A stretch of DNA of 40,865 bases from a virus, in UHGV virus genome UHGV-0180691; one strand, written 5' to 3'. Both the position numbers and the translations under genes were made by a program. The notes under the pieces were generated by a model. The model ran no database searches, was not told the DNA's origin, and saw nothing but the letters and a program-made list of their open reading frames with translations. The first letter of the stretch is position 1. Each line of letters starts with the position of its first letter. This document shows, in pieces, positions 720 to 38,800 of this stretch.

Positions 720-1883
720 TTAAGATTTTTTTTCTATCGATGTCCTTCCATCATACTCAGTCAGGTATTTTCCGTAATGGCGGAACAGCATTTCCGGTCC
801 CTTATGCCCCATTTGTCCCGCAAGCCAAAACAGGTTAGCTCCTTGACTGATATGTCTGGTGGCGAACGTATGCCTAGTCTGATATGGGTTTCTATAACGA
901 ATACCAGCCTTACGTAATGTTGGAACCCATGCTTTTTTTCTAATTGCATCAGCACTGGCCCAAGGTTTGTTCCTTTTTGGGTCTTCGAATATCATTTCAC
1001 CTTTCATAAAAGTGAACAGTTTCTGGCTGTCGAGAGCCGCCAATGCTTCTTCAGTCAGTTCTACTTTCCTTGTGCCTGCTTTTGTTTTTGTTGCTTTAAT
1101 GACACCAACTACACTGGCATTTTGAACGTGTGCTGTCCTGCCTACAAAGTCGATATCACGCCAACGAAGAGCACACAACTCAGAACTACGCAGCCCGGTT
1201 TGTATAGCGAACCGAAAAAGGTTCTCACACTGCTTATTGCCAGTTGCTGAGAGCAATGCGTCAACTTCTGTTGGCGTCAAAGGATCTACCACATAACTAC
1301 TTTCTGCCTCTGATTTATCACTTTGGTAACGTGAGGCTGTCACTAGTGATACAGGGTTAATCTGAAGAATACCATCCGTCACCGCCTCATCCAAAGCAGA
1401 ACGCAGGAATGACAGCTGGTTTCGAATAGTCTTTAATGTGGTTTTCTGGCTCTGGATCCATGTCTTCAATGCAGCTGGCGTCAACTCACTTGCAGGAAAA
1501 ATATGAAGTGCTGACAGCGCGCTTCGGCATTTCTTATATCCGCCAATTGTTGAAGGGGACAGTTTCCTCGTTTCGCATATCACCAAATATTCGTCCAAGT
1601 ACATCTTCACAGTTTTACCGGCGGCAGCGTTGCCAAAAATTCTTAACCGGTTAGAACGAGGAAAGTATTCCGCATAAACGAAAGTCCCCCTCTCGATCTT
1701 GTTATATATTTCTCCGAGTGTGCGCTCGGCGTACTTAATGTTTTTTGGAGTTACGTCCAGATTAGAAAGGGGCTCACGGCATTTTACCCCTTTATAAGTG
1801 AAGGTAATATTTATGGTTTCACCGTTGCGATGTTTCCTGATGGTTACGCCGCGTGGGAGTTTAGGCGATTCTGTCGTGCCCAT
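720..1883 (-). CDS. int: phage tyrosine integrase
   Basis: 387 aa; C-terminal catalytic region with conserved R...HxxR...Y context (RHTFATRHISQGANLFWLAGQMGHKGPEMLFRHYGKY); located at prophage end with overlapping excisionase-like gene upstream. Confidence 0.9.
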   Translation of the reverse strand: MGTTESPKLPRGVTIRKHRNGETINITFTYKGVKCREPLSNLDVTPKNIKYAERTLGEIYNKIERGTFVYAEYFPRSNRLRIFGNAAAGKTVKMYLDEYLVICETRKLSPSTIGGYKKCRSALSALHIFPASELTPAALKTWIQSQKTTLKTIRNQLSFLRSALDEAVTDGILQINPVSLVTASRYQSDKSEAESSYVVDPLTPTEVDALLSATGNKQCENLFRFAIQTGLRSSELCALRWRDIDFVGRTAHVQNASVVGVIKATKTKAGTRKVELTEEALAALDSQKLFTFMKGEMIFEDPKRNKPWASADAIRKKAWVPTLRKAGIRYRNPYQTRHTFATRHISQGANLFWLAGQMGHKGPEMLFRHYGKYLTEYDGRTSIEKKS

Positions 1884-5777: not shown

Positions 5778-6473
5778 TTATCCGTGCCGTTTAACTGACT
5801 GCGACTGGCTGATCATTACCTTGCCGAAAACGTAAAATCTGTCTTCATTGGACTTATCCACTGACCACTCCCGATATTTAGGGTTATCGGAAATGACAAG
5901 AATTTTATCTGGGATCATCTGTAATCTTTTGACGTAAATTTTATCATCAAAACCAAAGACATAAATCCCATCACCATCAAACTCATTAATCGAAATATCA
6001 ACGAATATCAAATCACCTGGTTCAATGGTATCAGCCATGCTGTCACCACGAACGTTAATCACTTTGACCGTATCTGGTGTTCTCCCACCAAATAATGCGG
6101 CGGCTCTTTCGTTGTTGTACTCAATGGACCTGATGACATCGACGACATCACTACCTTGTATATGGCCCATGCCAGCACTGGCGCTGACATCGAGCAACTC
6201 GACTCTAAACACAGGGTCACCCTCTCCATAAGCTGGATTTTTACCACTGGATTTACATACAGTATTTTCATTTGGAGATGGTGTAAAGAGTTCTGCCACG
6301 CTGACACCAAGTGCCGTAGCATATTTGCTAAGCGATTGTTCAGTAAATGACTTTTGTTTTCCAGTCTCAACCCGTGAGACGTTCGCACCGTCAATACCTA
6401 CAGCTTCAGCAAGATCTGAAATTTTCATGCCCTTTTCGAGGCGTAATTCTCTAATGCGGTTTCCTATGTTCAT
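5778..6473 (-). CDS. cI: CI-like prophage repressor (N-terminal HTH, C-terminal LexA/S24-like autopeptidase domain)
   Basis: 231 aa; N-terminal HTH (IRELRLEKGMKISDLAEAVGIDGANVSRVETG); C-terminal domain with GDSM and VKRL context typical of S24 Ser/Lys dyad; divergent from cro-like gene. Confidence 0.9.
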   Translation of the reverse strand: MNIGNRIRELRLEKGMKISDLAEAVGIDGANVSRVETGKQKSFTEQSLSKYATALGVSVAELFTPSPNENTVCKSSGKNPAYGEGDPVFRVELLDVSASAGMGHIQGSDVVDVIRSIEYNNERAAALFGGRTPDTVKVINVRGDSMADTIEPGDLIFVDISINEFDGDGIYVFGFDDKIYVKRLQMIPDKILVISDNPKYREWSVDKSNEDRFYVFGKVMISQSQSVKRHG

Positions 6474-7716: not shown

Positions 7717-8571
7717 ATGAGCACTAAATTAACGGGTTACGTTTGGGACGCTTGTGCCGCTTCTGGCATGAAGCTGTCCAGCGTTGCCATCATGGCGCGT
7801 CTGGCAGACTTCAGCAGTGATGAAGGGGTTAGCTGGCCTTCCATCGCTACCATCGCGCGCCAGATTGGTGCCGGTGAGAGCACGGTTCGCACAGCCATAT
7901 CTCAACTGGAAAAAGACGGGTGGTTAACCCGCCAGCAGCGCCGTAAAGGCAACCGCAATGCATCGAACGTTTACCAGCTCAATGTTGCGAAATTACAGGC
8001 TGCTGCTTTTTCTCACCTGTCAGATTCTGACGCATCAAATTCTGATGCCTCAAAAACCGACGCGTCAAAATCTGAGGCATCAAAAAACGATGAAAAAGGC
8101 GGTTTTCACCCGTCAGAATCTGGGGGGGATCCGTCAGTAAATACAACTACTGATCCATCAGTTAAAAAACCTTTTTGTCCGGTTGCGCCGCAACCAGACC
8201 CTGAAGTGATGATTACCGATAACGCCATCCTGGTTCTGAATCATCTGAACCTGGTTAGCGGCTCACGATACCAAAAATCAAAAACTTCTCTGGAAAACAT
8301 CCGTGCTCGCTTGCGCGAAGGTTACACCGTTGGTGACTTACAACTGGTGATTGACCTTAAGCATGAGCACTGGAACGGCAATGACGTGCAGTACCAGTAC
8401 ATGCGCCCTGAAACGCTATTTGGCCCGAAAAAGTTCGAGGGTTATCTGCAAAGCGGGATCCGTTGGGACAAGAAGGGGCGTCCACCACGTGAAAGCTGGG
8501 GTGAAAAGAAACACGATCCGATGAAGTTCGGTCCGGTTGATACCAAGATTCCAGAGGGGTTCAGAGGATGA
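7717..8571 (+). CDS. replication initiation protein (O-like, N-terminal winged-HTH; conserved phage C-terminal domain)
   Basis: 284 aa; position after cro/cII; internal low-complexity linker encoded by direct repeats (iteron-like) as in lambda O; RBS AAAGGA upstream. Confidence 0.65.
   Translation: MSTKLTGYVWDACAASGMKLSSVAIMARLADFSSDEGVSWPSIATIARQIGAGESTVRTAISQLEKDGWLTRQQRRKGNRNASNVYQLNVAKLQAAAFSHLSDSDASNSDASKTDASKSEASKNDEKGGFHPSESGGDPSVNTTTDPSVKKPFCPVAPQPDPEVMITDNAILVLNHLNLVSGSRYQKSKTSLENIRARLREGYTVGDLQLVIDLKHEHWNGNDVQYQYMRPETLFGPKKFEGYLQSGIRWDKKGRPPRESWGEKKHDPMKFGPVDTKIPEGFRG
8026..8088. repeat. four direct repeats with 15-bp periodicity (core GAYGCNTCAAAA), iteron-like, inside the replication gene
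   Basis: Cores start at 8029, 8044, 8059, 8074; followed by an A-rich stretch; encode the SDASNSDASKTDASKSEASKND linker. Confidence 0.5.
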
Positions 8572-9455
8572 CGGAAAATAAATACTGCCGCGCACTGGCT
8601 GAACTCCGTTCAAAACCAGCGCATGAATTGAAAGAAGTTGGCGATCAGTGGCGAACTCCAGATCTACTTTTTTGGGGCATCAATTCGATATTTGGCCCGA
8701 TGGCTCTGGATCTGTTTGCAGATGATAGCAATGCAAAATGCCCTGCATGGTATACCGCCGAAGATAACGCGTTGACGCAGGACTGGTCAGAACGTCTGGC
8801 AGAACTCGGTGGCGCCGCGTTTGCTAACCCGCCATACAGCCGTTCTCAGTACCATGAAAAGCAGGCCATCACTGGCATGACTCACATCATGAATCACACA
8901 ATGGCTATGCGTGATAAAGGTGGTCGTTACATATACCTCGTGAAGTCAGCCACAAGTGAAACATGGTGGCCGGAGGATGCCGATCACATCATGTTTATTC
9001 GTGGTCGTATTGGGTTTGATCTTCCTGTTTGGTTTGTTCCCGCTGACGAGAGGCAGCAACCCACCAGCGCATTTTTTGCCGGGGCAATAGCTGTTTTCGA
9101 CAAAACCTGGCGTGGTGAAAGCTTCAGCTATATCAATCGCACCGAACTGGAAGAAAAAGGGCGTGCAGCATTGTCATTGGCTCAATTCGCCGCGGCAAAA
9201 ATGGCCCTTCCTTCGGTGCCGGAAAAAGCAATGCCTACTCCAATTGCAACACCTGATGCAGAGTCGCGCATCTGGCCTCTTGAGGTTGGACTGGTGTTTA
9301 ACCAAATTGAAGGGGCTGACGCTCTACCTGTTTCACAGCAGAACAAGCTGAAAGCCAATATCAACCAGCTGTGGCTCGAACGTATGCCTACGAGTGAAAT
9401 TATCACGACCGCTGGTGGTCTCTTCAACAGCATGCAGGGGGCCGTCAATGCGTGA
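8568..9455 (+). CDS. DNA N6-adenine methyltransferase (phage Dam-like)
   Basis: 295 aa; motifs DLFADDSN and FANPPYS (NPPY catalytic motif); stop overlaps start of the next methyltransferase gene. Confidence 0.7.
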   Translation: MTENKYCRALAELRSKPAHELKEVGDQWRTPDLLFWGINSIFGPMALDLFADDSNAKCPAWYTAEDNALTQDWSERLAELGGAAFANPPYSRSQYHEKQAITGMTHIMNHTMAMRDKGGRYIYLVKSATSETWWPEDADHIMFIRGRIGFDLPVWFVPADERQQPTSAFFAGAIAVFDKTWRGESFSYINRTELEEKGRAALSLAQFAAAKMALPSVPEKAMPTPIATPDAESRIWPLEVGLVFNQIEGADALPVSQQNKLKANINQLWLERMPTSEIITTAGGLFNSMQGAVNA

Positions 9456-11385
9456 AATCATCGTTGATAACTTTGCCGGTGGTGGCGGCGCGAGTACCGG
9501 CATTGAACTGGCCATCGGGCGTAGCGTGGATATCGCTATCAACCACGACGAAAACGCTATTGCGATGCATAAGACGAATCACCCAGACACGCTGCATTAT
9601 TGCGAGTCGGTGTTTGACGTTGACCCAAGCGCAGCCACCAGCGGTAAACCTGTCGGCCTGGCCTGGTTTAGCCCTGACTGCCGCCACTTTTCCAAAGCGA
9701 AGGGCGCTAAGCCAGTTAAGAAAGAGATTCGCGGGCTGGCGTGGATTGTTCTGCGCTGGGCGCTGGCAGTACGTCCCCGAGTCATGATGCTGGAGAACGT
9801 CGAAGAATTTAAGACATGGGGCCCGCTGCTGGATGAAGAATTACGCCCGGATCCTGAGCGTGCTGGTGAAACATTCGAGGCATTTGTCGGCATGCTGTCG
9901 ACTGGTATCGCTGCGAATCACCCAGCACTGGCTGAGGTTTGCGAATTTCTTGCCATTGAGCCGCACGGCAAGCAGGCGCAACAGCTGATCGCCGGGCTTG
10001 GCTATGAGGTCGATTATCGTGAACTGCGCGCTTGTGACTATGGCGCGCCGACGATCAGAAAGCGTTTCTTCATGGTCATGCGTTGTGACGGCCGCAAGAT
10101 TCATTGGCCTGAAGCGACTCATGGGGATCCAAAATCACTGGAAGTACAAAGCGGCAAGCTGGCGCCATGGCGTACCGCGGCGGAGTGCATTGACTGGAAT
10201 ATCCCGGCCCGGTCCATCTTCGACCGCAAAAAGCCGCTGGCGGAAAATACGCTCAAACGTATCGCGCGCGGCATCCAGCGTTTCGTTATCGAGAGTGCTT
10301 CGCCGTTTATCGTTAAGTGCAACCACACCACGTCACACGGCAAATATGATTGTTTCCGTGGGCAGGAGCTCGAGGCTCCATTACAAACCATCACGAAAAC
10401 CCACGGCTATGCGCTGGCGGTACCGCATCTTACTAAATTCCGCACCGGGGCCACCGGGCAGCCAGTGACCGAGCCGGTTCCAACTGTCACCGCTGGTACG
10501 TCGGCGCGCCCGGGCGGGAATGGACATGCGCTTGGCGTAGTTGAGGCCGCCCTGACACCGTTCCTGGCTGGCAATGGCGGCAGTGAGTACCAGGCAAAGC
10601 CGCGCCCGCTGGATAAACCCGCTCATACAATCCTCAAGCAGTCCCACGCGTGCGTGGTTGCGCCGGTCATCGCCCGCCAGTTTGGCGCCAGTGTTGGGCA
10701 CAGGGCTGACGAACCGAGCGCGACGATTACTGCAGGTGGTGGCGGTAAGTCGCAGCTGGTAACTCCAACATTGATCCAGATGGGGTACGGCGAACGCCCA
10801 GGACAAGAACCGCGTGTTCTTCAACTGAATAACCCGCTCGGCACGGTCACTGCTGGTGGTAATAAGTTTGCAACGGTGAGCGCGTTCCTGGCGAAGCACT
10901 ATGGTGGGAATTACACGGGGCCGGGTGTTGGTATGGATGAGCCTGCCCATTCAGTCACTACTGTTGATCATCACGCGGTAGTTGCGTCGCACCTGGTGAA
11001 GCTGCGCGGAACCTGCCGCGACGGTCAGACCATGGATACACCTATGCCGACGATTACCGCTGGTGGCCAGCATGTTGGCGAGGTCCGGACATTCCTCGAA
11101 ACATACTGCGGTGATAGCGAGGATGAATGGCTGGTGACGATCGAGGGGGTTAAGTACCAGATCGTCGATATCGGAATGCGCATGCTGCAACCGCATGAGC
11201 TTTATAAGGCGCAGGGCTTCCCTGACGGCTACGTTATCGATCAGGACTATCGCGGCAATCGTTACGCCAAAGACAAGCAGGTAGCGCGCTGCGGTAACGC
11301 AGTACCGCCGCCGTTCGCTCGTGCTCTGGTAGAAGCAAATCTTCCTGAATTATGTGCAAATCAAAAGGCGGGTGCAGCCGCCTGA
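9448..11385 (+). CDS. DNA cytosine-5 methyltransferase with extended repeat-containing variable region
   Basis: Start at ATG 9448 (MREIIVDNFAGGGGASTG = motif I); SPDCRHFS (catalytic Cys motif IV), MLENVEEF (ENV motif VI), C-terminal LQGFP and GNAVPPPFARAL (motifs IX/X); about 360-aa region between motifs VIII and IX with repeated T(V/I)TAGG modules. Confidence 0.85.
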   Translation: MREIIVDNFAGGGGASTGIELAIGRSVDIAINHDENAIAMHKTNHPDTLHYCESVFDVDPSAATSGKPVGLAWFSPDCRHFSKAKGAKPVKKEIRGLAWIVLRWALAVRPRVMMLENVEEFKTWGPLLDEELRPDPERAGETFEAFVGMLSTGIAANHPALAEVCEFLAIEPHGKQAQQLIAGLGYEVDYRELRACDYGAPTIRKRFFMVMRCDGRKIHWPEATHGDPKSLEVQSGKLAPWRTAAECIDWNIPARSIFDRKKPLAENTLKRIARGIQRFVIESASPFIVKCNHTTSHGKYDCFRGQELEAPLQTITKTHGYALAVPHLTKFRTGATGQPVTEPVPTVTAGTSARPGGNGHALGVVEAALTPFLAGNGGSEYQAKPRPLDKPAHTILKQSHACVVAPVIARQFGASVGHRADEPSATITAGGGGKSQLVTPTLIQMGYGERPGQEPRVLQLNNPLGTVTAGGNKFATVSAFLAKHYGGNYTGPGVGMDEPAHSVTTVDHHAVVASHLVKLRGTCRDGQTMDTPMPTITAGGQHVGEVRTFLETYCGDSEDEWLVTIEGVKYQIVDIGMRMLQPHELYKAQGFPDGYVIDQDYRGNRYAKDKQVARCGNAVPPPFARALVEANLPELCANQKAGAAA

Positions 11386-11399
11386 TATGGAGAAATAGC

Positions 11400-12092
11400 A
11401 TGAATCAGTTAACCGCAAAGGGTGTTGTGACAATGTCCAGCCGTGAAATTGCCAGGCTGGTGCAGAGCAAACATGGTGATGTGAAGCGCTCAGCTGAGCG
11501 CCTTGCATCTGCTGGTATTTTAACCGCGCCGTTGGCGCACACCCCCTACACACACCCGCAAAACGGGCAAACCTACGAGGAGTATTGGTTCAACAAACGT
11601 GATTCTCTGGTGATCGTCGCCAGGCTGTCGCCAGAATTTACCGCCGCTGTTGTCGATCGCTGGCAAGAGCTGGAGAACAGCCAGGCCGTAAGTGTCCCGC
11701 AAACATTGCCGGAGGCATTACGTCTCGCCGCGGATCTGGCCGAGCAGAAAGAACAACTCAGCCAGCAGTTAGCCGCTGCCGCGCCGAAAATTGAGTTTGT
11801 CGATCGGTATTGTACTGCCAAAGGCTCAATGTCTTTCCGCCAGGTGGCAAAGCTGTTGCAGGCCAAAGAGACCGATTTCCGCTTGTTCCTCATTGAGAGC
11901 GACATTATGTACCGGCTCGGCGGAGTGCTGACACCGCGGCACCAGCACATTGCTGCCGGGCGGTTTGAAGTGAAAACTGGCACCACGAGCGAAACAAACT
12001 ACGCCTTTAGCCAGGCACGTTTTACACCCAAAGGCATCGAGTGGATCGGCGGCCTGTGGACGGCACACATCGCTAAGGGGCATGCCGCGTGA
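11400..12092 (+). CDS. Rha/antirepressor family protein (N-terminal Rha-like, C-terminal Ant-like domain)
   Basis: ATG at 11400 with GGAG upstream; N-terminal MSSREIARLVQSKHGDVKR pattern typical of Rha family; assignment from memory. Confidence 0.6.
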   Translation: MNQLTAKGVVTMSSREIARLVQSKHGDVKRSAERLASAGILTAPLAHTPYTHPQNGQTYEEYWFNKRDSLVIVARLSPEFTAAVVDRWQELENSQAVSVPQTLPEALRLAADLAEQKEQLSQQLAAAAPKIEFVDRYCTAKGSMSFRQVAKLLQAKETDFRLFLIESDIMYRLGGVLTPRHQHIAAGRFEVKTGTTSETNYAFSQARFTPKGIEWIGGLWTAHIAKGHAA

Positions 12093-13150
12093 GAGGACTG
12101 TTTACAGCCGAGACTGTTCCTCGCCTTGGCCTAGTGGTGTTAAAGCCGGGCAGCGAACTGATGTCTCTGTTTCAACAGGGGCGTGTGCTGGTGGAGCCTC
12201 AGCCAAAAAGCATGGCTGGGCTTCCGTCGGGCCTCGTCCCTGATGCCAGGCAGCCGCTGGCAGAAGATAAGTCCCTCGAGGAATTCTTCACCGACGAGAG
12301 AGTAATCCGTGCAGCTGGCGGTTTGACCGCGTTGGAATCCTGGTTAGAACGTAACGTGAAGGAATGCCAGTACCCGCACACTGATTATCACCATCATGAG
12401 CTGGTAACGATGCGACACCCCCCTGGATCAATGTTGCTCTGTTGGCATTGCGATAACCAGCTGCGCGATCAAACCACCGCGGCGCTGGCAGAACTGGCCC
12501 GGCGTAATCTCATTAACTGGCTGATCAGTTCCATCCTGTCATCGCTTGGCTATAACAACGAGCGTGAATTATCCCTCGGTGAATTGTGCTGGTGGGCCGT
12601 CTATTCAGGCATTGCTGTTGCAATCACGGAAAGGATGGCCCAGCGTGCGCTTCGATTACCGGACGAGTCGTTTTTATCCGTATATCGAGAAAGTGACATT
12701 GTGCCGATGCCCCCCGCTAAAAGCATTTTGCAGAAGAAGGTCACCCCTGCGGTCACGGCTGCGAAATTAAAGCATGGAGCAAATCAGGAAGTGGCCTATG
12801 ACCAGCCAAAGGTTCTGGCTCTGCATGCGGATCCTGAATCCCCTGAATCATTCATGTTGCGCCCAAAACACCGCAGGTGGATGAATGAGGACTATACCCG
12901 GTGGGTTAAAACCCAGCCCTGTGAAGGTTGCCGGCGGCCAGCGGATGATCCACACCATGTCATTGGTCACGGCATGGGCGGTACCGCCACTAAAGCCCAC
13001 GATTTGTTCGTGATCCCTCTGTGCAGAGAGTGTCACGACAAATTACATGCTGATGTTGCAGCGTTCGAGAAAAAACACGGTACCCAGCTGGAGCTGCTAT
13101 TCCGGTTTATGAATCGAGCGCTGGCGATCGGCGTAATAACAAAAGCGTAA
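12089..13150 (+). CDS. DUF968-type phage protein (YdfU-like) with C-terminal Cys/His HNH-like motif
   Basis: 353 aa; GTG start with AAGGGG RBS; C-terminal CEGCRRPADDPHHVIGHG...CRECHDKLH. Confidence 0.55.
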   Translation: MRGLFTAETVPRLGLVVLKPGSELMSLFQQGRVLVEPQPKSMAGLPSGLVPDARQPLAEDKSLEEFFTDERVIRAAGGLTALESWLERNVKECQYPHTDYHHHELVTMRHPPGSMLLCWHCDNQLRDQTTAALAELARRNLINWLISSILSSLGYNNERELSLGELCWWAVYSGIAVAITERMAQRALRLPDESFLSVYRESDIVPMPPAKSILQKKVTPAVTAAKLKHGANQEVAYDQPKVLALHADPESPESFMLRPKHRRWMNEDYTRWVKTQPCEGCRRPADDPHHVIGHGMGGTATKAHDLFVIPLCRECHDKLHADVAAFEKKHGTQLELLFRFMNRALAIGVITKA

Positions 13151-13171
13151 TTGTATGGAGCGCTGAGCATA

Positions 13172-13864
13172 ATGAATTTACAAGAACTGGAATATACGCG
13201 GATTGAACTGCGCCGCGCGCTGGCGGATTTATCAGGATCGACAAAAGGACAGCTGCAGGCGTTCAGTGAGCATCCACCAGCAGATAAGAATAAATACCCT
13301 CGGCACCATCCTGAAATCGTCATGGAGGGTGGGGAAGGTTGTGGATCGAAGGTTGTAAAAACTCTGGCCACTCCGCTTTATGTTCTTGAGACAAGGAGCC
13401 GTCGCCGACCTTTACCGCCTATTAAGGATACGGAGTTCGCTTGTTCAGCATGGCGTCGATCGGTCAATGGTCTGGGGGCGCATTTGCAGGCATGGGTGCG
13501 GTACTGCTATGGGCATGACCTTGCTTTCCGGTACCAGAGGTTAATGTGCCAGCACGTATGGGAAGAGTTTCAGCGTCAGCATAGCGGCAAAAAAATCCAA
13601 GACCGTGTCACTAAAAAACTGGTAGGGCTTGTCTGGCTGGCGGCGCAAGAAGTTGCTGCCTCGCGTAATAACGATACCTATCAGGAGTATGCTGGAGCAG
13701 CTCTGGCGCGCATGGTCAGCGTTGAGCGTTCCACCTGGCTCAGAGTGTATTCAGGCCACTGGGCAGCTTTCAAAGCGTCGTTTTCGGAGATGGACAGCCA
13801 GGCACTAAGCGAAATTTTGACACGGTACGAAGAGTACCAAGAACTGAAAGTGGCGGAAATGTGA
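13172..13864 (+). CDS. putative late-gene antiterminator (Q-like)
   Basis: ATG at 13172 with GGAG upstream; immediately upstream of a strong intrinsic terminator and the lysis cassette, the canonical Q position; sequence family not verified. Confidence 0.5.
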   Translation: MNLQELEYTRIELRRALADLSGSTKGQLQAFSEHPPADKNKYPRHHPEIVMEGGEGCGSKVVKTLATPLYVLETRSRRRPLPPIKDTEFACSAWRRSVNGLGAHLQAWVRYCYGHDLAFRYQRLMCQHVWEEFQRQHSGKKIQDRVTKKLVGLVWLAAQEVAASRNNDTYQEYAGAALARMVSVERSTWLRVYSGHWAAFKASFSEMDSQALSEILTRYEEYQELKVAEM

Positions 13865-13957
13865 GGTAACTTTCACTAACTCCCTCAATTAGGCTTGCAA
13901 AATGCAACAAAATAAGCGATATTTGAAGCTAATTTGATATATTGCCAAAAGTTTATA

Positions 13958-13982
13958 AACCCGCCAGCGAGCGGGTTTTTTA
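13958..13982 (+). terminator. rho-independent terminator (tR'-like) downstream of Q-like gene
   Basis: Stem CCCGC / GCGGG with loop CAGCGA followed by T6. Confidence 0.7.
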
Positions 13983-14003
13983 TTAGATGTTTTTTAAGGA
14001 ATC

Positions 14004-14291
14004 TTAAGGGAAAACACTACTCCATTGGAATTGAGCTCCTGCATCGAAGATTGTTAGCTCTGCGACATCTCTTGGTGTTCTCTTAGCTTTAAATGCTGGG
14101 CTATTTTCGTAAAAGCACTTCATGTTTTTCATATAGCGGTATAACACATCGCCAGAAGCATCATAAATAATAAATGAATCAATATTATGTGTATTAGTCT
14201 TTGATTCATTCGGGTCGATGTAACAAACAATGTTTCTTATAGCTTGGCGCACTTGCGCGATACTCTGAAATGACACAACTAGTACCTCCAA
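14004..14291 (-). CDS. doubtful hypothetical ORF in AT-rich spacer
   Basis: 95 aa but TTG start and weak RBS; internal ATG lacks an RBS; listed only because it is the sole ORF in a roughly 690-bp AT-rich interval. Confidence 0.15.
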   Translation of the reverse strand: MEVLVVSFQSIAQVRQAIRNIVCYIDPNESKTNTHNIDSFIIYDASGDVLYRYMKNMKCFYENSPAFKAKRTPRDVAELTIFDAGAQFQWSSVFP

Positions 14292-14550
14292 TTTCTTATG
14301 AATACTCTTTATATATCGTCTAGATGCATGTTTTCTTTATGCCAGGTCTTTATTTTTATAAATACGGCAAGTTCTAATTAGAAATTGAGCGCTTCCAGAT
14401 AGGGAGCATTTATTTGTGGAAATGGGCGGCTGGTGGGTGTTGTAGCACCCAACCAGCCATTAGCTCATGCTTTCAGGTCACAAGCTAACCAAGGCCCATT
14501 GCTTTAGCGCAAAAGCATAGTGAGCCTATCAGAGTTACGCTTACGGATCT

Positions 14551-15603
14551 ATGAAAAATACTGTAAATATAAACAGTGTTGAGCTTATCAACGCTGACTG
14601 CCTGCAATACCTAGCAACCCTCCCAGATAACACCATCGACCTTATTGTTACGGATCCGCCTTATTTTAAGGTGAAGCCGAACGGCTGGGATAATCAGTGG
14701 AACGGTGACGCCGACTATCTTCGCTGGCTTGATATGTGTCTTGCCCAGTTCTGGCGAGTGCTTAAGCCTGCCGGCAGCCTGTATTTGTTTTCAGGTCACC
14801 GACTTGCATCCGATATTGAGATCATGATGCGTGAACGCTTCAACGTCATGAACCACATTATCTGGGCGAAGCCATCAGGGCGCTGGAACGGGTGTAATAA
14901 AGAAAGCCTGCGCTCTTACTTTCCCGCGACGGAACGCATCCTTTTCGCTGAGCATTATCAGGGGCCATATAAGCCGAAAAGCGACGGGTTTGCTGAGAAA
15001 AGCAACGAGGTCAAACAGCACGTCATGGCTCCGTTAATCACCTACTTTCGGGATGCACGAGCCGAACTGGGGGTCACGTCCAGGCAAATAGCTGACGCCA
15101 CCGGAAAGAAAAATATGGTGTCTCACTGGTTCGGTGCCAGTCAGTGGCAACTACCGAACGAGCAGGATTACGAAAAGCTGCAGGAATTGTTCACTCAGAT
15201 CGCCATTGAGAAGCACCGCGCCTCAGAACTCAAAGCACCGCATCACCAGCTGGTGGCCACATGGCATTCGTTGAACCGGAAATACCTTGATCTGCTGGAA
15301 GAGTACAAATCTCTTCGGCGGCATTTCTCTGTGACAGTAGCCGTGCCCTATACAGACGTCTGGACACATAAACCCGTCCAGTTCTATCCAGGCAAACACC
15401 CGTGCGAAAAGCCCGCTGATATGTTGCGGCAAATCATCAACGCCAGCAGCAGGCCCGGCGATGTGGTAGCTGATTTCTTTATGGGCTCGGGATCAACTGT
15501 TAAAGCAGCCATTGAACTGGGCCGCCAGGCTATCGGCGTAGAACTGGAAGAGGAACGTTTCAACCAGACGGTAAGTGAGGTGAGGCAGCTGGCAGGGGAA
15601 TAA
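14551..15603 (+). CDS. DNA methyltransferase, N6-adenine/N4-cytosine class (beta-type, DPPY motif)
   Basis: 350 aa; VTDPPYF (motif IV) near N-terminus and FFMGSGST (motif I, AdoMet binding) near C-terminus, the order typical of beta-class amino-methyltransferases. Confidence 0.8.
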   Translation: MKNTVNINSVELINADCLQYLATLPDNTIDLIVTDPPYFKVKPNGWDNQWNGDADYLRWLDMCLAQFWRVLKPAGSLYLFSGHRLASDIEIMMRERFNVMNHIIWAKPSGRWNGCNKESLRSYFPATERILFAEHYQGPYKPKSDGFAEKSNEVKQHVMAPLITYFRDARAELGVTSRQIADATGKKNMVSHWFGASQWQLPNEQDYEKLQELFTQIAIEKHRASELKAPHHQLVATWHSLNRKYLDLLEEYKSLRRHFSVTVAVPYTDVWTHKPVQFYPGKHPCEKPADMLRQIINASSRPGDVVADFFMGSGSTVKAAIELGRQAIGVELEEERFNQTVSEVRQLAGE

Positions 15604-15673
15604 AAGCTTGGGTCGCTATCGCGGCCCTTTTTATTACCTCAACTGGACACCCGCAACGTAGCGAGGTGAGAGC

Positions 15674-15889
15674 ATGTATCGAATGGAAAAAATCACGACG
15701 GGTATTGCATACGGCGCATCGGGAGGGGGGACCGGATACTGGTTGCTTCAGCTCCTCGATAAAGTCTCCCCATCTCAATGGGCGGCCATTGGTGTGCTCG
15801 GTAGCCTCATGTTTGGTTTGCTGACGTGGTTAACGAGTCTGTACTTCCAAATTAAAGCGGATCGCCGCAAAGCTGCGCGGGGTGAATGA
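15674..15889 (+). CDS. S: class II holin / pinholin (phage 21 S-like), dual-start motif
   Basis: 71 aa, two predicted TM helices, C-terminal RRKAARGE; Met1-x-Arg-Met4 dual start; strong resemblance to phage 21 S pinholin as I recall it. Confidence 0.85.
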
Positions 15890-16425
15890 TGTCGAACAAA
15901 GCAAAGCTCAGCGCAGCAGTGCTGGCGCTAATCGCGTCAGGGGCATCTGCTCCACTCATTTTCGACCAATTCATCAGCGAGAAAGAAGGCAATGCGCTGG
16001 TGGCCGTTGTTGATCCGGGTGGGGTCTGGTCTTTATGTCACGGCGTGACCGTTATCGATGGCAGGCGTGTTGTTAAGGGCATGACAGCCACAGAGGAACA
16101 ATGCCGCAAGGTTAACGCTATTGAACGTGATAAGGCATTAGCCTGGGTGGATCGCAATATCAAAGTGCCTCTGACAGAGCCGCAGAAGGTAGGCATCGCA
16201 TCTTTTTGCCCGTACAACATCGGGCCGGGTAAATGCTTCCCGTCCACGTTCTATAAGCGCATCAATGCTGGTGACCGGAAAGGGGCATGTGAAGCTATTC
16301 GCTGGTGGATTAAAGATGGCGGCCGTGATTGCCGACTAACCAAAGGCCAAAAGAATGGCTGCTATGGGCAGGTCGAGCGGCGCGATCAAGAAAGTGCGCT
16401 GGCGTGCTGGGGGCTGGACCAATGA
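15886..16425 (+). CDS. R: SAR endolysin (T4-lysozyme-like muramidase with N-terminal signal-anchor-release domain)
   Basis: 179 aa; Gly/Ala-rich weakly hydrophobic N-terminus ([19 protein letters not shown]); E...D...T catalytic spacing ([22 protein letters not shown]); overlaps holin stop. Confidence 0.85.
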
Positions 16426-16940
16426 AAATTAATGCAGGTCTTATCGGCGTTATCGTTATTGCTGGCCTTTCGGTCGCTCTCGTTAAGAGTTGCTCAAACG
16501 CCAGTAGCCTGCAGAGCGATAACGACGTTCTGCGAAGTGACAACTCTTTGCAGGGGCAGGTGATCGCTACCCAGGCATTCAACTTTAATCGGTTCTATCA
16601 GGTAGCCGAACATGCCAACAGGCTTAACGCCCTGATAGACACCAGCACCGAAGAAACCGTAATCGAATACCGGGAGATTCTCCGCCGTGAAAAAACCTGT
16701 GATCTGCCTGTTCCTGCTGACATTGCTGGTGGGCTGCTCGAATACGCGTACCGTTTACGTGCCAGCGCCATGCACACCGATACCAACAGACCTGACGCAG
16801 CCGATGATCGTGCCGCTGCCGCCAGCTCAATGACGTACTGCCAGGCTGTTTTGTGGATAAAGCCTCTACTGGCCGTGATTGAGAAGGGCAACAATAATTT
16901 CGCTGGCATAAGGCAGATCGAGCAGGAAAGAAAGAACTAG
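16422..16940 (+). CDS. Rz: i-spanin (Rz-like)
   Basis: ATG at 16422 overlapping endolysin stop; N-terminal TM segment; coiled-coil-rich periplasmic region; contains an embedded lipoprotein ORF in another frame. Confidence 0.7.
   Translation: MKINAGLIGVIVIAGLSVALVKSCSNASSLQSDNDVLRSDNSLQGQVIATQAFNFNRFYQVAEHANRLNALIDTSTEETVIEYREILRREKTCDLPVPADIAGGLLEYAYRLRASAMHTDTNRPDAADDRAAAASSMTYCQAVLWIKPLLAVIEKGNNNFAGIRQIEQERKN
16688..16834 (+). CDS. Rz1: o-spanin (Rz1-like outer-membrane lipoprotein) embedded within Rz in an alternative frame
   Basis: Hand translation from GTG 16688: MKKPVICLFLLTLLVGCSNTRTVYVPAPCTPIPTDLTQPMIVPLPPAQ; lipobox LVGC; proline-rich mature region; GGGAGA about 10 nt upstream; below the 60-aa cutoff of the ORF track. 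Confidence 0.6.
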
Positions 16941-17354: not shown

Positions 17355-17852
17355 TTAATCACACTCTTGCCGTTGCCGATCTAGAGTGTTAAGTGCCTTC
17401 ATGTAAGCGCTATACGCTCCCTTAAATGTTTGTCCAGCCTGCTCAATTGCCGACTCTTGTAATTCTTGATTATTACCAGCGCTGTCTGCGAGATAAAAGG
17501 CCTTAAGAACGTTCGCCGCAACTAAACCCAGCTCAGGAGGGGCGTAGGTCATTACTTCTGTAGCGCTTTGAACTACGGGTAACATATCTTTTCTCAGGTC
17601 GCCTCTGGTCATTGGGTTGGTCAATGCAGGAGAAAAGCCAAACGAAGTAACTGAAACCATAAATTGATTATATTTTTCTCTCAATAGTGACTCCTGCTTA
17701 TCTAAACGAATAATGCAGGCTGTTTTGGAGGCATTGTGAGTTTGTAAATAGTTTCCATACAATCCCAAAAGCGCAGTAATGCTTACACCAAGTAAGGTAC
17801 AGATTACGGGAAAAATGACATTAAACTGGTTTATCCGTGGGCGACTGCTCAT
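17355..17852 (-). CDS. hypothetical single-pass membrane protein; AT-rich insert between lysis and packaging modules
   Basis: ATG at 17852 preceded by AAGGAG with 8-nt spacer; N-terminal hydrophobic helix (FNVIFPVICTLLGVSITALLGLYG); antisense to the late operon; own downstream terminator; AT-rich by eye. Confidence 0.55.
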   Translation of the reverse strand: MSSRPRINQFNVIFPVICTLLGVSITALLGLYGNYLQTHNASKTACIIRLDKQESLLREKYNQFMVSVTSFGFSPALTNPMTRGDLRKDMLPVVQSATEVMTYAPPELGLVAANVLKAFYLADSAGNNQELQESAIEQAGQTFKGAYSAYMKALNTLDRQRQECD

Positions 17853-18263
17853 GACCAAAGCTCCTTAGTTAACAACTTAATTTTCACTAATTAGTAAGTC
17901 CATATTTGCTTGCCATGATTTTAACATCAAGCTCCAGAACGTGGTTGGTAATCATTTTTAGAGTCTCTTTACTTCCAGATTTGACCGTTTTTGTTAATTA
18001 ATTTCCAGCTGGAGAAATGAGGCTAACCGCCTCGATCAGCAAGGGACCGGCAATACTGGTGTCAAAGCATACACGAGAATGAATCTCATAAGTAAAAGGT
18101 ACTCCTGGCGATTATAAACACCGAGGGGGCGAGGACACGCGGAAAAAGCCAAATTTTTGCATTTTTATCGGCCATCACCACCACTTCAATTCATTGAAAC
18201 ATCGGGATAAAAATTTTTCCGGTGTCGATTCTGTTTGTTTTTTGTTCATCACTGGAGCCATTC

Positions 18264-37074: not shown

Positions 37075-37094
37075 TACTGTATATAAAAACAGTG
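37075..37094. promoter_or_regulatory. LexA binding site (SOS box) in umuDC promoter
   Basis: TACTGTATATAAAAACAGTG = CTGT-N8-ACAG consensus, 16 nt upstream of umuD start codon. Confidence 0.85.
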
Positions 37095-37109
37095 TTTGAG
37101 GTGTGTGCA

Positions 37110-37529
37110 ATGGAATTCATCAGGCCAACAGAACTGCGAGAAATTATCGCTCTCCCGCTTTTCAGTGACTTAGTTCAGTGTGGTTTCCCAAGTCCTGCAG
37201 CTGATTACGTTGAACAGCGTATCGATCTCAATGAGTTACTTGTCGCTCACCCGAGTTCAACGTATTTCGTCAAAGCCGCGGGTGATTCTATGATCGAAGC
37301 CGGGATCAGCGACGGTGATCTTCTGGTGGTGGACAGCTCCAGGACTGCTGAGCATGGTGATATTGTCATCGCTGCGGTGGAAGGGGAGTTCACTGTTAAA
37401 CGCCTTCAGCTGCGCCCGACCGTGCAACTCAATCCTATGAACAGCGCCTATAGTCCGATTGTTGTGGGCAGCGAAGACACGCTGGACGTTTTCGGCGTCG
37501 TGACTTTCATCGTTAAATCTGCGAGCTGA
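37110..37529 (+). CDS. umuD: UmuD, error-prone polymerase V accessory subunit (S24 autopeptidase)
   Basis: 139 aa; near-identical stretches to E. coli UmuD as I recall it ([44 protein letters not shown]); LexA box upstream. Confidence 0.85.
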
Positions 37530-37531
37530 AT

Positions 37532-38800
37532 ATGTTTGCGCTCTGTGATGTGAATTCGTTCTACGCATCATGCGAGACGGTGTTTCGGCCAGATTTGAAA
37601 GGGCGGCCAGTGGTTGTTCTTTCGAATAATGATGGCTGTGTAATAGCACGAAGCGCCGAGGCCAAAGCCGCTGGAATTACTATGGGAGAGCCGTTCTTTA
37701 AGCAAAAGGAGCTTTTCCGGCGCGCTGGCGTTGTCTGCTTCAGCAGCAACTATGAGCTGTATGCTGATATGTCGAACCGGGTAATGACGACGCTTGAGGA
37801 AATGAGCCCCCGCGTTGAAATTTACAGTATCGATGAAGCTTTTTGTGACCTGACGGGCGTTAGGAACTGCCGGGACCTGACTGACTTTGGCAAAGAGATC
37901 CGCGCTACAGTTCTGAAGCGAACGCACTTGACTGTCGGGGTTGGCATTGCCCAGACAAAGACATTGGCGAAGCTTGCCAATCACGCAGCGAAGAAATGGC
38001 AGCGCCAGACCGGCGGGGTAGTGGACCTGTCGAACATTGACCGTCAGCGGCGGTTACTGGCTATTGTACCTGTGGAGGATGTATGGGGTGTCGGCAGACG
38101 CATTAGCAAAAAGCTGAACGCCATGGGCATCAAAACAGCTCTGGACCTCTCAGAACAAAGCACCTGGATTATCCGTAAACACTTTAACGTTGTACTCGAG
38201 CGAACTGTCCGGGAACTGCGCGGTGAACCATGTCTGGAGCTTGAAGAGTTTGCGCCGGCAAAGCAGGAAATCGTGTGCAGCAGGTCTTTTGGTGAACGCG
38301 TCACCGAATACGAACAGATGCGGCAAGCTATTTGCAGCTATGCGGCGCGTGGTGCCGAAAAGCTTCGGGGCGAGCATCAGTATTGCCGCTTTATCTCTGC
38401 CTTCGTGAAAACCTCTCCATTCGCGCTTAATGAGCCGTATTACGGTAATAGCGCTTCAATGAAGCTTCTCATACCTACACAGGATTCCCGCGACATTATC
38501 AACGCCGCAGTAAAGTGCCTGGACAAAATCTGGAAGGATGGTCACCGGTACCAGAAGGCAGGAATCATGCTTGGGGATTTTTTCAGCCAGGGTGTGGCCC
38601 AACTTAACTTGTTCGACGATAACGCCCCGCGGGCCGGCAGCGAAAGGTTGATGGAGGTGCTTGATCACTTGAACGACAAAGATGGAAAAGGCACCCTGTA
38701 CTTCGCGGGGCAGGGCATTCAGCAGCAGTGGCAGATGAAACGAGAAATGTTGTCGCCGCGATATACGACGAGATATTCAGATCTGCTAAGAGTCCGATAA
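37532..38800 (+). CDS. umuC: UmuC, Y-family DNA polymerase V catalytic subunit
   Basis: 422 aa; N-terminal [15 protein letters not shown] and SIDEAF motifs of Y-family polymerases; immediately downstream of umuD. Confidence 0.9.

Follow-up and report, generated by a model that had tools for sequence, protein, structure and literature searches.

Target-recognition arrays carried by a single polypeptide are credited in a 2025 review to the temperate phages of Bacillus alone (PMC12707154), and one of the enzymes concerned, that of phage SPR, is given 'triple sequence specificity' by the title of an article that PMC8936443 cites. Here we analyse an enzyme that resembles these proteins, the C5-cytosine methyltransferase of the virus genome UHGV-0180691, which was studied as one stretch of 40,865 nucleotides (nt), called the window below, formed by a lambda-like prophage and then host-type genes. 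The features that it has in common with M.SPRI, M.Phi3TI, M.Rho11sI and M.H2I are one C5 core and an extended stretch from motif VIII to motif IX that holds tandem units of ~30-50 amino acids (aa), each bearing a T[ILV][TS] signature, as well as an origin in temperate phages, the absence of a restriction partner and differences in unit content among natural variants. Our literature searches returned no account of multi-domain C5 arrays outside Bacillus phages, nor of the family to which the window enzyme belongs, a very large phage-borne C5 family that is apparently uncharacterised.

The same prophage encodes two further solitary methyltransferases. An earlier note on this DNA had described three such enzymes of three different classes, and the three open reading frames (ORFs) lie where it placed them, with products of 295, 645 and 350 aa that match Pfam families PF05869, PF00145 and PF01555, respectively; the loss of catalytic motifs, which would have spoken against the assignments, was looked for in the translations, and the motifs are intact in all three enzymes. 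The division into three classes stands in the sense of three unrelated structural families, while the chemistry is probably of two kinds, with two N6-adenine enzymes and one C5-cytosine enzyme. Beyond that description lie the build of the C5 enzyme from modules, the relationship of the beta-class enzyme to M.EcoGII, and an HNH-like DUF968 gene in the neighbourhood. The trio itself is not new; it is already present in deposited phage and prophage sequences, and its Dam-type and M.EcoGII-type components are ordinary members of characterised families. Solitary phage methyltransferases being a recognised route of restriction evasion, the part of real interest is the C5 enzyme.

The C5 enzyme and its array of modules

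The C5 product matches PF00145 (DNA_methylase, E 1.8e-20) and falls in a cluster of 645-aa proteins, 98% identical, with 1680 member sequences. Its start overlaps the stop of the Dam-type gene, as had been claimed, by 8 nt (ATGCGTGA). Motif I, FAGGGG (aa 9-14), is invariant in 128 homologues; motif IV, SPDCRHFS (aa 75-82, nt 9670-9693), contains Cys78, likewise invariant, and is followed by motif VI (ENV, aa 116-118), motif VIII (TIRKR, aa 202-206), motif IX (RMLQPHE..GFPD, aa 578-593) and motif X (GNAV, aa 616-619). The residue that precedes Cys78 is Asp, not Pro: SPDC is found in nearly all of 270 homologues, and the family-wide form of motif IV is SPDC[RKT]H[FW]S. In a fold search that used the catalytic domain only, the predicted structure matched 3g7u, DNMT1, M.HhaI and M.HaeIII with a Foldseek probability of 1.00. 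The first of these, PDB entry 3G7U, a putative C5 enzyme of the Escherichia coli O157 prophage CP-933R, is the best PDB match in both sequence and structure; it shares the prophage location and the APTIR.R form of motif VIII, but it is 376 aa long and shows a canonical GPPCQ motif IV in the local alignment. The sole NCBIfam match is to a dcm superfamily model, below its cut-off, which aligns with aa 5-121 only, so that the remaining part described next is unmodelled in that collection.

From motif VIII (aa 202) to motif IX (aa 578) the window enzyme spans 376 aa, and within this span lie seven tandem target-recognition-like modules (table), 28-48 aa long and spaced by 32-48 aa, which begin in order with EAPLQTITKTHGYALAV.., TEPVPTVTAGTSARPGGNGHALGV.., DKPAHTILKQSHACVVA.., DEPSATITAGGGGKSQLV.., NNPLGTVTAGGNKFATV.., DEPAHSVTTVDHHAVVA.. 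and DTPMPTITAGGQHVGEV... Each repeats the canonical target-recognition signature D-x-P-x-x-T-[IV]-T, in a head of the form D-x-P-x-P-T-[IV]-T, and continues with a variable loop and a predicted beta-strand. An iterated hidden Markov model (HMM) of the module, with consensus DEPLPTVTAGGNHHALVAAFLVKYYGGSVGGQA, gives each copy 25-48 bits, whereas shuffled sequences reach 5.7 at most. The head corresponds to what is conserved in the target-recognition domains of ordinary C5 enzymes; within two experimentally validated monospecific enzymes (PMC11954522) the module HMM matches just one segment, DKPSPTITT, situated ~23 aa before motif IX, with 7.5-9.7 bits. A recent duplication of DNA was considered as the origin of the array and rejected, Tandem Repeats Finder having returned nothing but a trivial 11-nt repeat; in view of this lack of tandem repetition in the DNA, the modules must be old and diverged.

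Whole modules are gained, lost, moved and recombined among the relatives of the window enzyme. Its close homologues (85-98% identical, 605-695 aa), which come from Enterobacter, Klebsiella, Citrobacter, Salmonella, Kluyvera and E. coli, either lack module 3, 4 or 5, cleanly and in frame, or have gained an eighth module. The family as a whole comprises 2582 clusters at 50% identity (E<1e-30), with 0-11 modules per protein among the 150 representatives listed; 2789 modules cluster into about 11-14 types, and 388 proteins display 212 architectures. The type called G, second in the window protein, comes after B in Brevibacillus, Cohnella and Janthinobacterium, and hybrid modules with the head of one type and the tail of another occur in gp21 of phage ZF40 and in the 605-aa variants. 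Orthologous modules of the window protein and of proteins from Burkholderia, Pectobacterium, Paenibacillus and Brevibacillus are 35-77% identical, and paralogous modules within the window protein 17-45%.

In functional terms, this architecture poses a question: What does a single catalytic domain do with seven recognition-like units? The explanation that we favour, and consider reasonably probable from the sequence comparisons, is that the C5 enzyme is multispecific and that its modules are alternative target-recognition domains. Each module, or a subset of them, would pair with the one catalytic domain, so that several target sequences could be methylated. A more detailed version, to which we hold tentatively and with slightly more doubt than confidence, is that the family combines a single core with a shuffled array of 1-11 autonomous cassettes of about a dozen types, in which case the window enzyme would methylate up to seven motifs. 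The comparison with the Bacillus phages is instructive here. In the enzyme sequences taken from the original GenBank records, the T[ILV][TS] signature is present three times in SPR, twice in phi3T and three to four times in rho11s and H2, as compared with seven times in the window enzyme, and its spacing is 30-48 aa in all of them. The Bacillus-phage enzymes have a PC motif IV, a span of 191-284 aa between motifs VIII and IX, and two to four units, whereas the window family forms an SPDC subfamily with a 376-aa span and seven units in the window enzyme (up to eleven in relatives), and is found mainly in phages of Proteobacteria. The likeness is one of analogy, or of very distant relatedness, rather than of membership in the same group.

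Several observations weigh against multispecificity. Neither the HMM built from the seven sequences nor the iterated module HMM rises above noise with the SPR, phi3T, rho11s and H2 enzymes, on which the iterated one scores at most 4.2 bits, within the range of shuffled sequences, and the module profile finds no match in the PDB even at E values up to 10; since no significant match to Bacillus-phage or PDB proteins was obtained, homology of the modules to proven recognition domains is not shown. AlphaFold2 gives a predicted local distance difference test (pLDDT) score of 26-52 across the modules in two runs, one with the window protein and an alignment of 128 sequences, the other with a 5-module relative and 82 sequences, and so lends the array no structural support. 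Motif IV has SPDC in place of the canonical and near-universal Pro-Cys dipeptide, and our literature searches gave no methylation data for the three window proteins or for any other protein of the C5 family. An 8-module homologue is encoded by phage ZF40, yet this phage, once propagated on a host without the CCNGG-specific PcaI system, is restricted by it in full (PMC8989522), so that the ZF40 enzyme either misses CCNGG or is too weakly active, and protection is not universal. Finally, the order of the modules is largely collinear across the family, following the series H G F A B I/J D C E, and this would also fit a structural repeat of variable length.

The last point introduces another possible interpretation, according to which the enzyme is monospecific and its modules constitute one large or variable-length structural repeat, be it a stack of beta-hairpins that widens the DNA-binding surface or a spacer. 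The single beta-strand that AlphaFold2 predicts for each module would agree with such a repeat, as would the failure to match proven multispecific domains, and solenoid-type repeats also tolerate the loss of units. We nevertheless regard it as unlikely, for the module types are conserved across phyla far above the likeness of paralogues, which argues for functions specific to each type. Moreover, the most variable part of the modules comes directly after the T[IV]T element, where the recognition loop sits in the structure of M.HhaI; canonical enzymes need just one such element, and in the SPR enzyme the number of signatures equals the number of specificities.

A different reading of the same region is that the enzyme is relaxed or nearly non-specific, a 5-methylcytosine (m5C) counterpart of the adenine methyltransferase M.EcoGII, with modules that jointly bind DNA independently of its sequence. 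The presence of an enzyme of the M.EcoGII family in the same phage fits this idea, together with the great length of the module region, whose low-confidence prediction may reflect flexibility, and the confinement of the C5 family to phages and prophages. Yet an enzyme of this kind is hard to reconcile with the case of ZF40, which is unprotected at CCNGG in spite of its homologue (PMC8989522), or with the conservation of discrete module types, which suggests discrete recognition functions; we consider it rather improbable.

Were the C5 enzyme multispecific, as we favour, and its thousands of relatives with it, multispecificity would be common among phages that infect Enterobacteriaceae, Burkholderia, Pseudomonas, Vibrio, Paenibacillus and other hosts, and would account for some of the m5C of phage DNA, which has been poorly mapped. 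The natural combinations of cassettes could then be used to decode which cassette reads which sequence, and to engineer C5 specificity.

The Dam-type and beta-class companions

The Dam-type enzyme scores well above the cut-offs of both PF05869 (Dam; E 2.3e-44, 151.5 bits, Pfam cut-off 28.1) and the NCBIfam equivalog TIGR01712 (phage_N6A_met; 206.5 bits, cut-off 97), and the NPPY motif that had been reported for it is present (table). Characterised members of these families, from phages T1, HP1 and VT2-Sakai, methylate GATC. With them and with the dam product of SfV the window enzyme shares the equivalog match, NPPY, a small catalytic domain (aa 1-219) and a position beside replication genes; the rest of the protein includes a conserved 64-aa C-terminal tail. 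It is 74% identical in aa to the SfV dam product and to the enzymes of Stx2c phages. Since SfV and the Stx2c phages also hold an M.EcoGII-type gene, the pairing of the two adenine enzymes is common.

A longer form of 444 aa is found in E. coli MEI4O1-23, Enterobacter roggenkampii and phage Eeyore (nt 9001-10332 in record L006, 2861-4195 in record L001), with an extra ~160 aa at aa 220-380, a middle segment that the window enzyme lacks; the 64-aa tail is 98% conserved between the two forms. A 'phosphoadenosine phosphosulfate reductase' that seemed to take the place of Dam in phage Eeyore was rejected as a distinct gene, being the longer Dam variant under a naming artefact of PHROG 33262; the same reductase label sits on the long form in several phage records, apparently for the same reason.

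The third enzyme matches PF01555 (N6_N4_Mtase, E 8.1e-43) and has DPPY (aa 35-38) ahead of FMGSG (aa 310-314), which bears out its reported beta-class nature. It aligns gap-free with the enzyme of phage 1720a-02, with 76% identity over 350 aa, and by tblastn is 77-81% identical to enzymes of Stx2 phages, SfV (orf48), cdtI, mEp460 and phiP27. The 1720a-02 enzyme has been termed very similar to M.EcoGII (PMC5778455), a 349-aa beta-class enzyme that belongs to a large family found in prophages, modifies adenine whatever the surrounding sequence and comes, like M.EcoGI, from prophages of E. coli O104:H4 (Murray et al. 2018, PMC5778455). Membership of the window enzyme in the M.EcoGI/M.EcoGII family is therefore well supported, if by a comparison that runs via the 1720a-02 enzyme and not through M.EcoGII itself; M.EcoGII and the window enzyme are alike in the order of DPPY, central region and FxGxG, in being prophage-borne, and in length (349 versus 350 aa). 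By analogy with M.EcoGII, the window enzyme would be non-specific for adenine context. Against such an extrapolation, 76% identity to a relative of M.EcoGII does not prove the loss of sequence specificity, and about a quarter of the residues differ between the window and 1720a-02 enzymes.

Among related phages, several records (mEp460_4F5, vB_EcoM-720R4) show the match to the beta-class gene running directly into the holin gene, but phage 1720a-02 has Q upstream of its enzyme and Shiga-toxin genes downstream. In the window, an insert bearing an ORFan stands between the gene and the tR'-like terminator that precedes it.

The Pectobacterium phage ZF40 was considered as a carrier of the same trio and rejected: its gp20 has a weak generic methyltransferase domain, and its gp27, encoded past Q, is a second C5 enzyme. 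This ordinary 344-aa C5 enzyme (nt 7829-8863 of record L007, just past Q) replaces the beta-class enzyme. In a Janthinobacterium prophage (L016, nt 10205-12259), a YbcO nuclease gene is followed by a beta-class enzyme that is 876 aa long or longer. The two slots, post-Q in ZF40 and post-YbcO in Janthinobacterium, look like hot-spots for varied methyltransferases in other phages.

Expression timing and biological role

The analysis directly shows the gene identities, the motifs, the layout of the operons and the module array with its cassette-like evolution, whereas we infer the expression timing, the target specificities and the protective role of the three enzymes from the layout and relationships of their genes. 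The O-like replication initiator is the marker of an early-right operon: a cro/cII-like region lies between the CI-like repressor and this gene, the stop of which overlaps the start of the Dam-type gene by 4 nt. The beta-class gene, which no other forward-strand gene separates from the tR'-like terminator before it, is placed in the late operon. Upstream of this terminator, ~30 nt past Q, a pR'-like promoter candidate was noticed, which a strict promoter scan did not report; promoter-like sequence and hairpin follow Q in the same arrangement as lambda pR' and tR'. Because the genes belong to the early-right operon or lie behind Q and the tR'-like terminator, all three are expected to be off in the lysogen.

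The earlier note had proposed orphan anti-restriction or epigenetic functions instead of complete restriction-modification (R-M) systems. The orphan status is supported, and of the two functions the operons expected to be silent in the lysogen favour lytic self-protection over lysogen epigenetics; for the same reason, the difference in methylome between a lysogen and its cured strain, which had been suggested as a check, would probably be nil. Most likely, the solitary methyltransferases shield phage DNA from host restriction. They would be made in lytic growth only and would pre-methylate the progeny DNA against the restriction systems of the next host. The Dam-type and C5 enzymes, coupled translationally to the replication initiator, would form an early pair acting on replicating DNA; the beta-class enzyme, transcribed only after Q antitermination, would add a probably broad methylation of adenine to N6-methyladenine (m6A) just before packaging. 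This scheme has a cost that speaks against it, in that extensive m5C or m6A would make the phage a target of type IV restriction, which depends on methylation. The combination of broad m6A with multi-site m5C in one phage would bear on host range, on phage therapy and on the passage of DNA through restriction barriers.

Could regulation be the main function of these enzymes, with epigenetic control of host genes in the lysogen or of the phage's replication, packaging or lysis-lysogeny decisions? Phage P1 offers a precedent, its packaging requiring Dam-methylated pac sites (PMC12707154), and the coupling of the Dam-type gene to the replication initiator would suit such a role. We consider this improbable, given that the genes are located past the immunity region, or past Q and a terminator, and that an enzyme of broad specificity is ill adapted to regulation at particular sites. 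M.EcoGII, besides, is reportedly unexpressed in its native lysogen and harmful if expressed, its over-expression slowing growth (PMC5778455).

Restriction partner and prophage setting

That no restriction endonuclease adjoins the methyltransferases had been claimed at the outset, and gene identities by Pfam and PHROG, a PADLOC search and the gene content of relatives bear this out. Neither Pfam nor PHROG revealed a cognate endonuclease among the neighbours, which are the O-like initiator, Rha/KilAC, DUF968, Q, the ORFan and the holin, and no PADLOC model matched the DUF968 protein or the ORFan. The C5 gene is also solitary in distant relatives, among early, replication or recombination genes of Pectobacterium, Burkholderia and Pseudomonas phages and of Burkholderia, Brevibacillus, Terrimicrobium and Janthinobacterium prophages.

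A search of the neighbouring ORFs for cryptic nucleases, as had been proposed, did turn up the HNH-like DUF968 gene two genes downstream of the C5 gene, which we judge not to encode a cognate enzyme. The idea that one or more of the methyltransferases belong to a complete R-M system, with the DUF968 protein or the ORFan as nuclease, draws on the His-Me-finger motif of the former, labelled 'HNH endonuclease' in some phage records, and on the position of the latter, which adjoins the beta-class gene upstream in divergent orientation. We consider it very improbable for either protein. DUF968 is classed with YdfU of the Qin prophage and YbcO of the DLP12 prophage, typical genes of the ninR region of lambdoid prophages beside RusA and Q (PMC5714182), and a link of proteins of the DUF968/YbcO type with recombination functions of the Orf type has been described (PMC4118853). 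Some E. coli prophages whose match lists contain no C5 gene have DUF968 as well. On account of this family context and the absence of a PADLOC match, DUF968 was rejected as a restriction enzyme. The ORFan was rejected in turn: it has 90 aa with no nuclease motif, and the 95-aa mechanical ORF that contains it (14004-14291) has no match in Pfam, PHROG, NCBIfam or PADLOC. Among 5.8 billion proteins it has a single homologue cluster, a 90-aa protein of an E. roggenkampii prophage, 94% identical and in the same context, and none of 5426 complete E. coli genomes contains its DNA, although some of them have the same methyltransferase; the ORFan is missing from most relatives. Besides, the operons of all these genes are repressed in the lysogen, and a defensive R-M role is incompatible with such repression. 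The ORFan, oriented opposite to the surrounding genes, resembles a moron-like unit.

Table. Coordinates of the genes, modules and signals in the window
Feature	Position (nt)	Strand	Details
Integrase	720-1883	-	
CI-like repressor	5778-6473	-	
O-like replication initiator	7717-8571	+	HTH_36 and Phg_2220_C
Phage Dam-type N6-adenine methyltransferase	8568-9455	+	295 aa; NPPY aa 87-90, nt 8826-8837
C5-cytosine methyltransferase	9448-11385	+	645 aa from ATG; mechanical ORF start GTG 9394
Seven tandem target-recognition-like modules	10372-11118	+	aa 309-557; types H G F A B D C
Limits of the modules	10372-10467, 10468-10611, 10612-10707, 10708-10827, 10828-10935, 10936-11034, 11035-11118	+	
Rha/KilAC antirepressor	11400-12092	+	PF03374, PF09669; mechanical ORF start 11352; second Met probable start
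DUF968 His-Me-finger (HNH-like) protein	12089-13150	+	PF06147 E 9e-71; ninR position
Antiterminator Q	13151-13864	+	PF06323 E 4e-39; probable start ~13172
pR'-like late promoter candidate	13895-13923	+	TTGCAA, 17 nt, GATATT; by eye only
tR'-like intrinsic terminator	13957-13978	+	Strong hairpin then T-run, ~90 nt past Q
ORFan	14004-14276	-	90 aa; GGAGG ribosome-binding site; AT-rich insert between tR'-like terminator and late methyltransferase
Beta-class N6-adenine methyltransferase, M.EcoGI/M.EcoGII family	14551-15603	+	350 aa; DPPY nt 14653-14664; FMGSG nt 15478-15492
Terminator-like hairpin	15610-15627	+	GC-rich hairpin and T-run, between late methyltransferase stop and holin start
Holin gene	15674-15889		
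Holin, lysozyme, Rz	15674-16940		

The probable starts of two genes in the table can be compared with models elsewhere: the antirepressor gene is modelled with 230 aa in relatives, and Q, likewise with 230 aa, in the E. roggenkampii prophage L011. Read-through of the terminator-like hairpin that separates the late methyltransferase from the holin would need Q-modified polymerase, and this hairpin may mark the methyltransferase gene off as a cassette that was inserted. The lysis genes are followed by the terminase, from 18222, and then by head and tail genes, and host-type genes for LysE and SRAP lie beyond ~38.9 kb. The nearest relatives of the prophage are prophages of E. roggenkampii and of a few E. 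coli strains, the phages Phi06_2987 S, LLS and Eeyore, and Citrobacter phiNP; most of the region is found in about 8-12 of the 5426 complete E. coli genomes.

Some minor features may be added. Between the lysis cassette and the terminase, a 167-aa ORF on the reverse strand (17355-17858), which has no Pfam or PADLOC match, occupies a slot that in the E. roggenkampii prophage L011 holds a Ser/Thr protein kinase and PP2C phosphatase pair, and that looks like a variable cargo position. In the early-left region, a protein with an Rv2179c-like 3'-5' exoribonuclease domain is encoded at 2085-2657 on the reverse strand; its E. coli relative carries the label '3'-5' exonuclease'. At the right end of the prophage, a 145-aa ORF (37092-37529, forward strand) precedes a gene for a UmuC-like translesion polymerase with IMS domains (37532-38800, forward strand), after which come LysE and SRAP.

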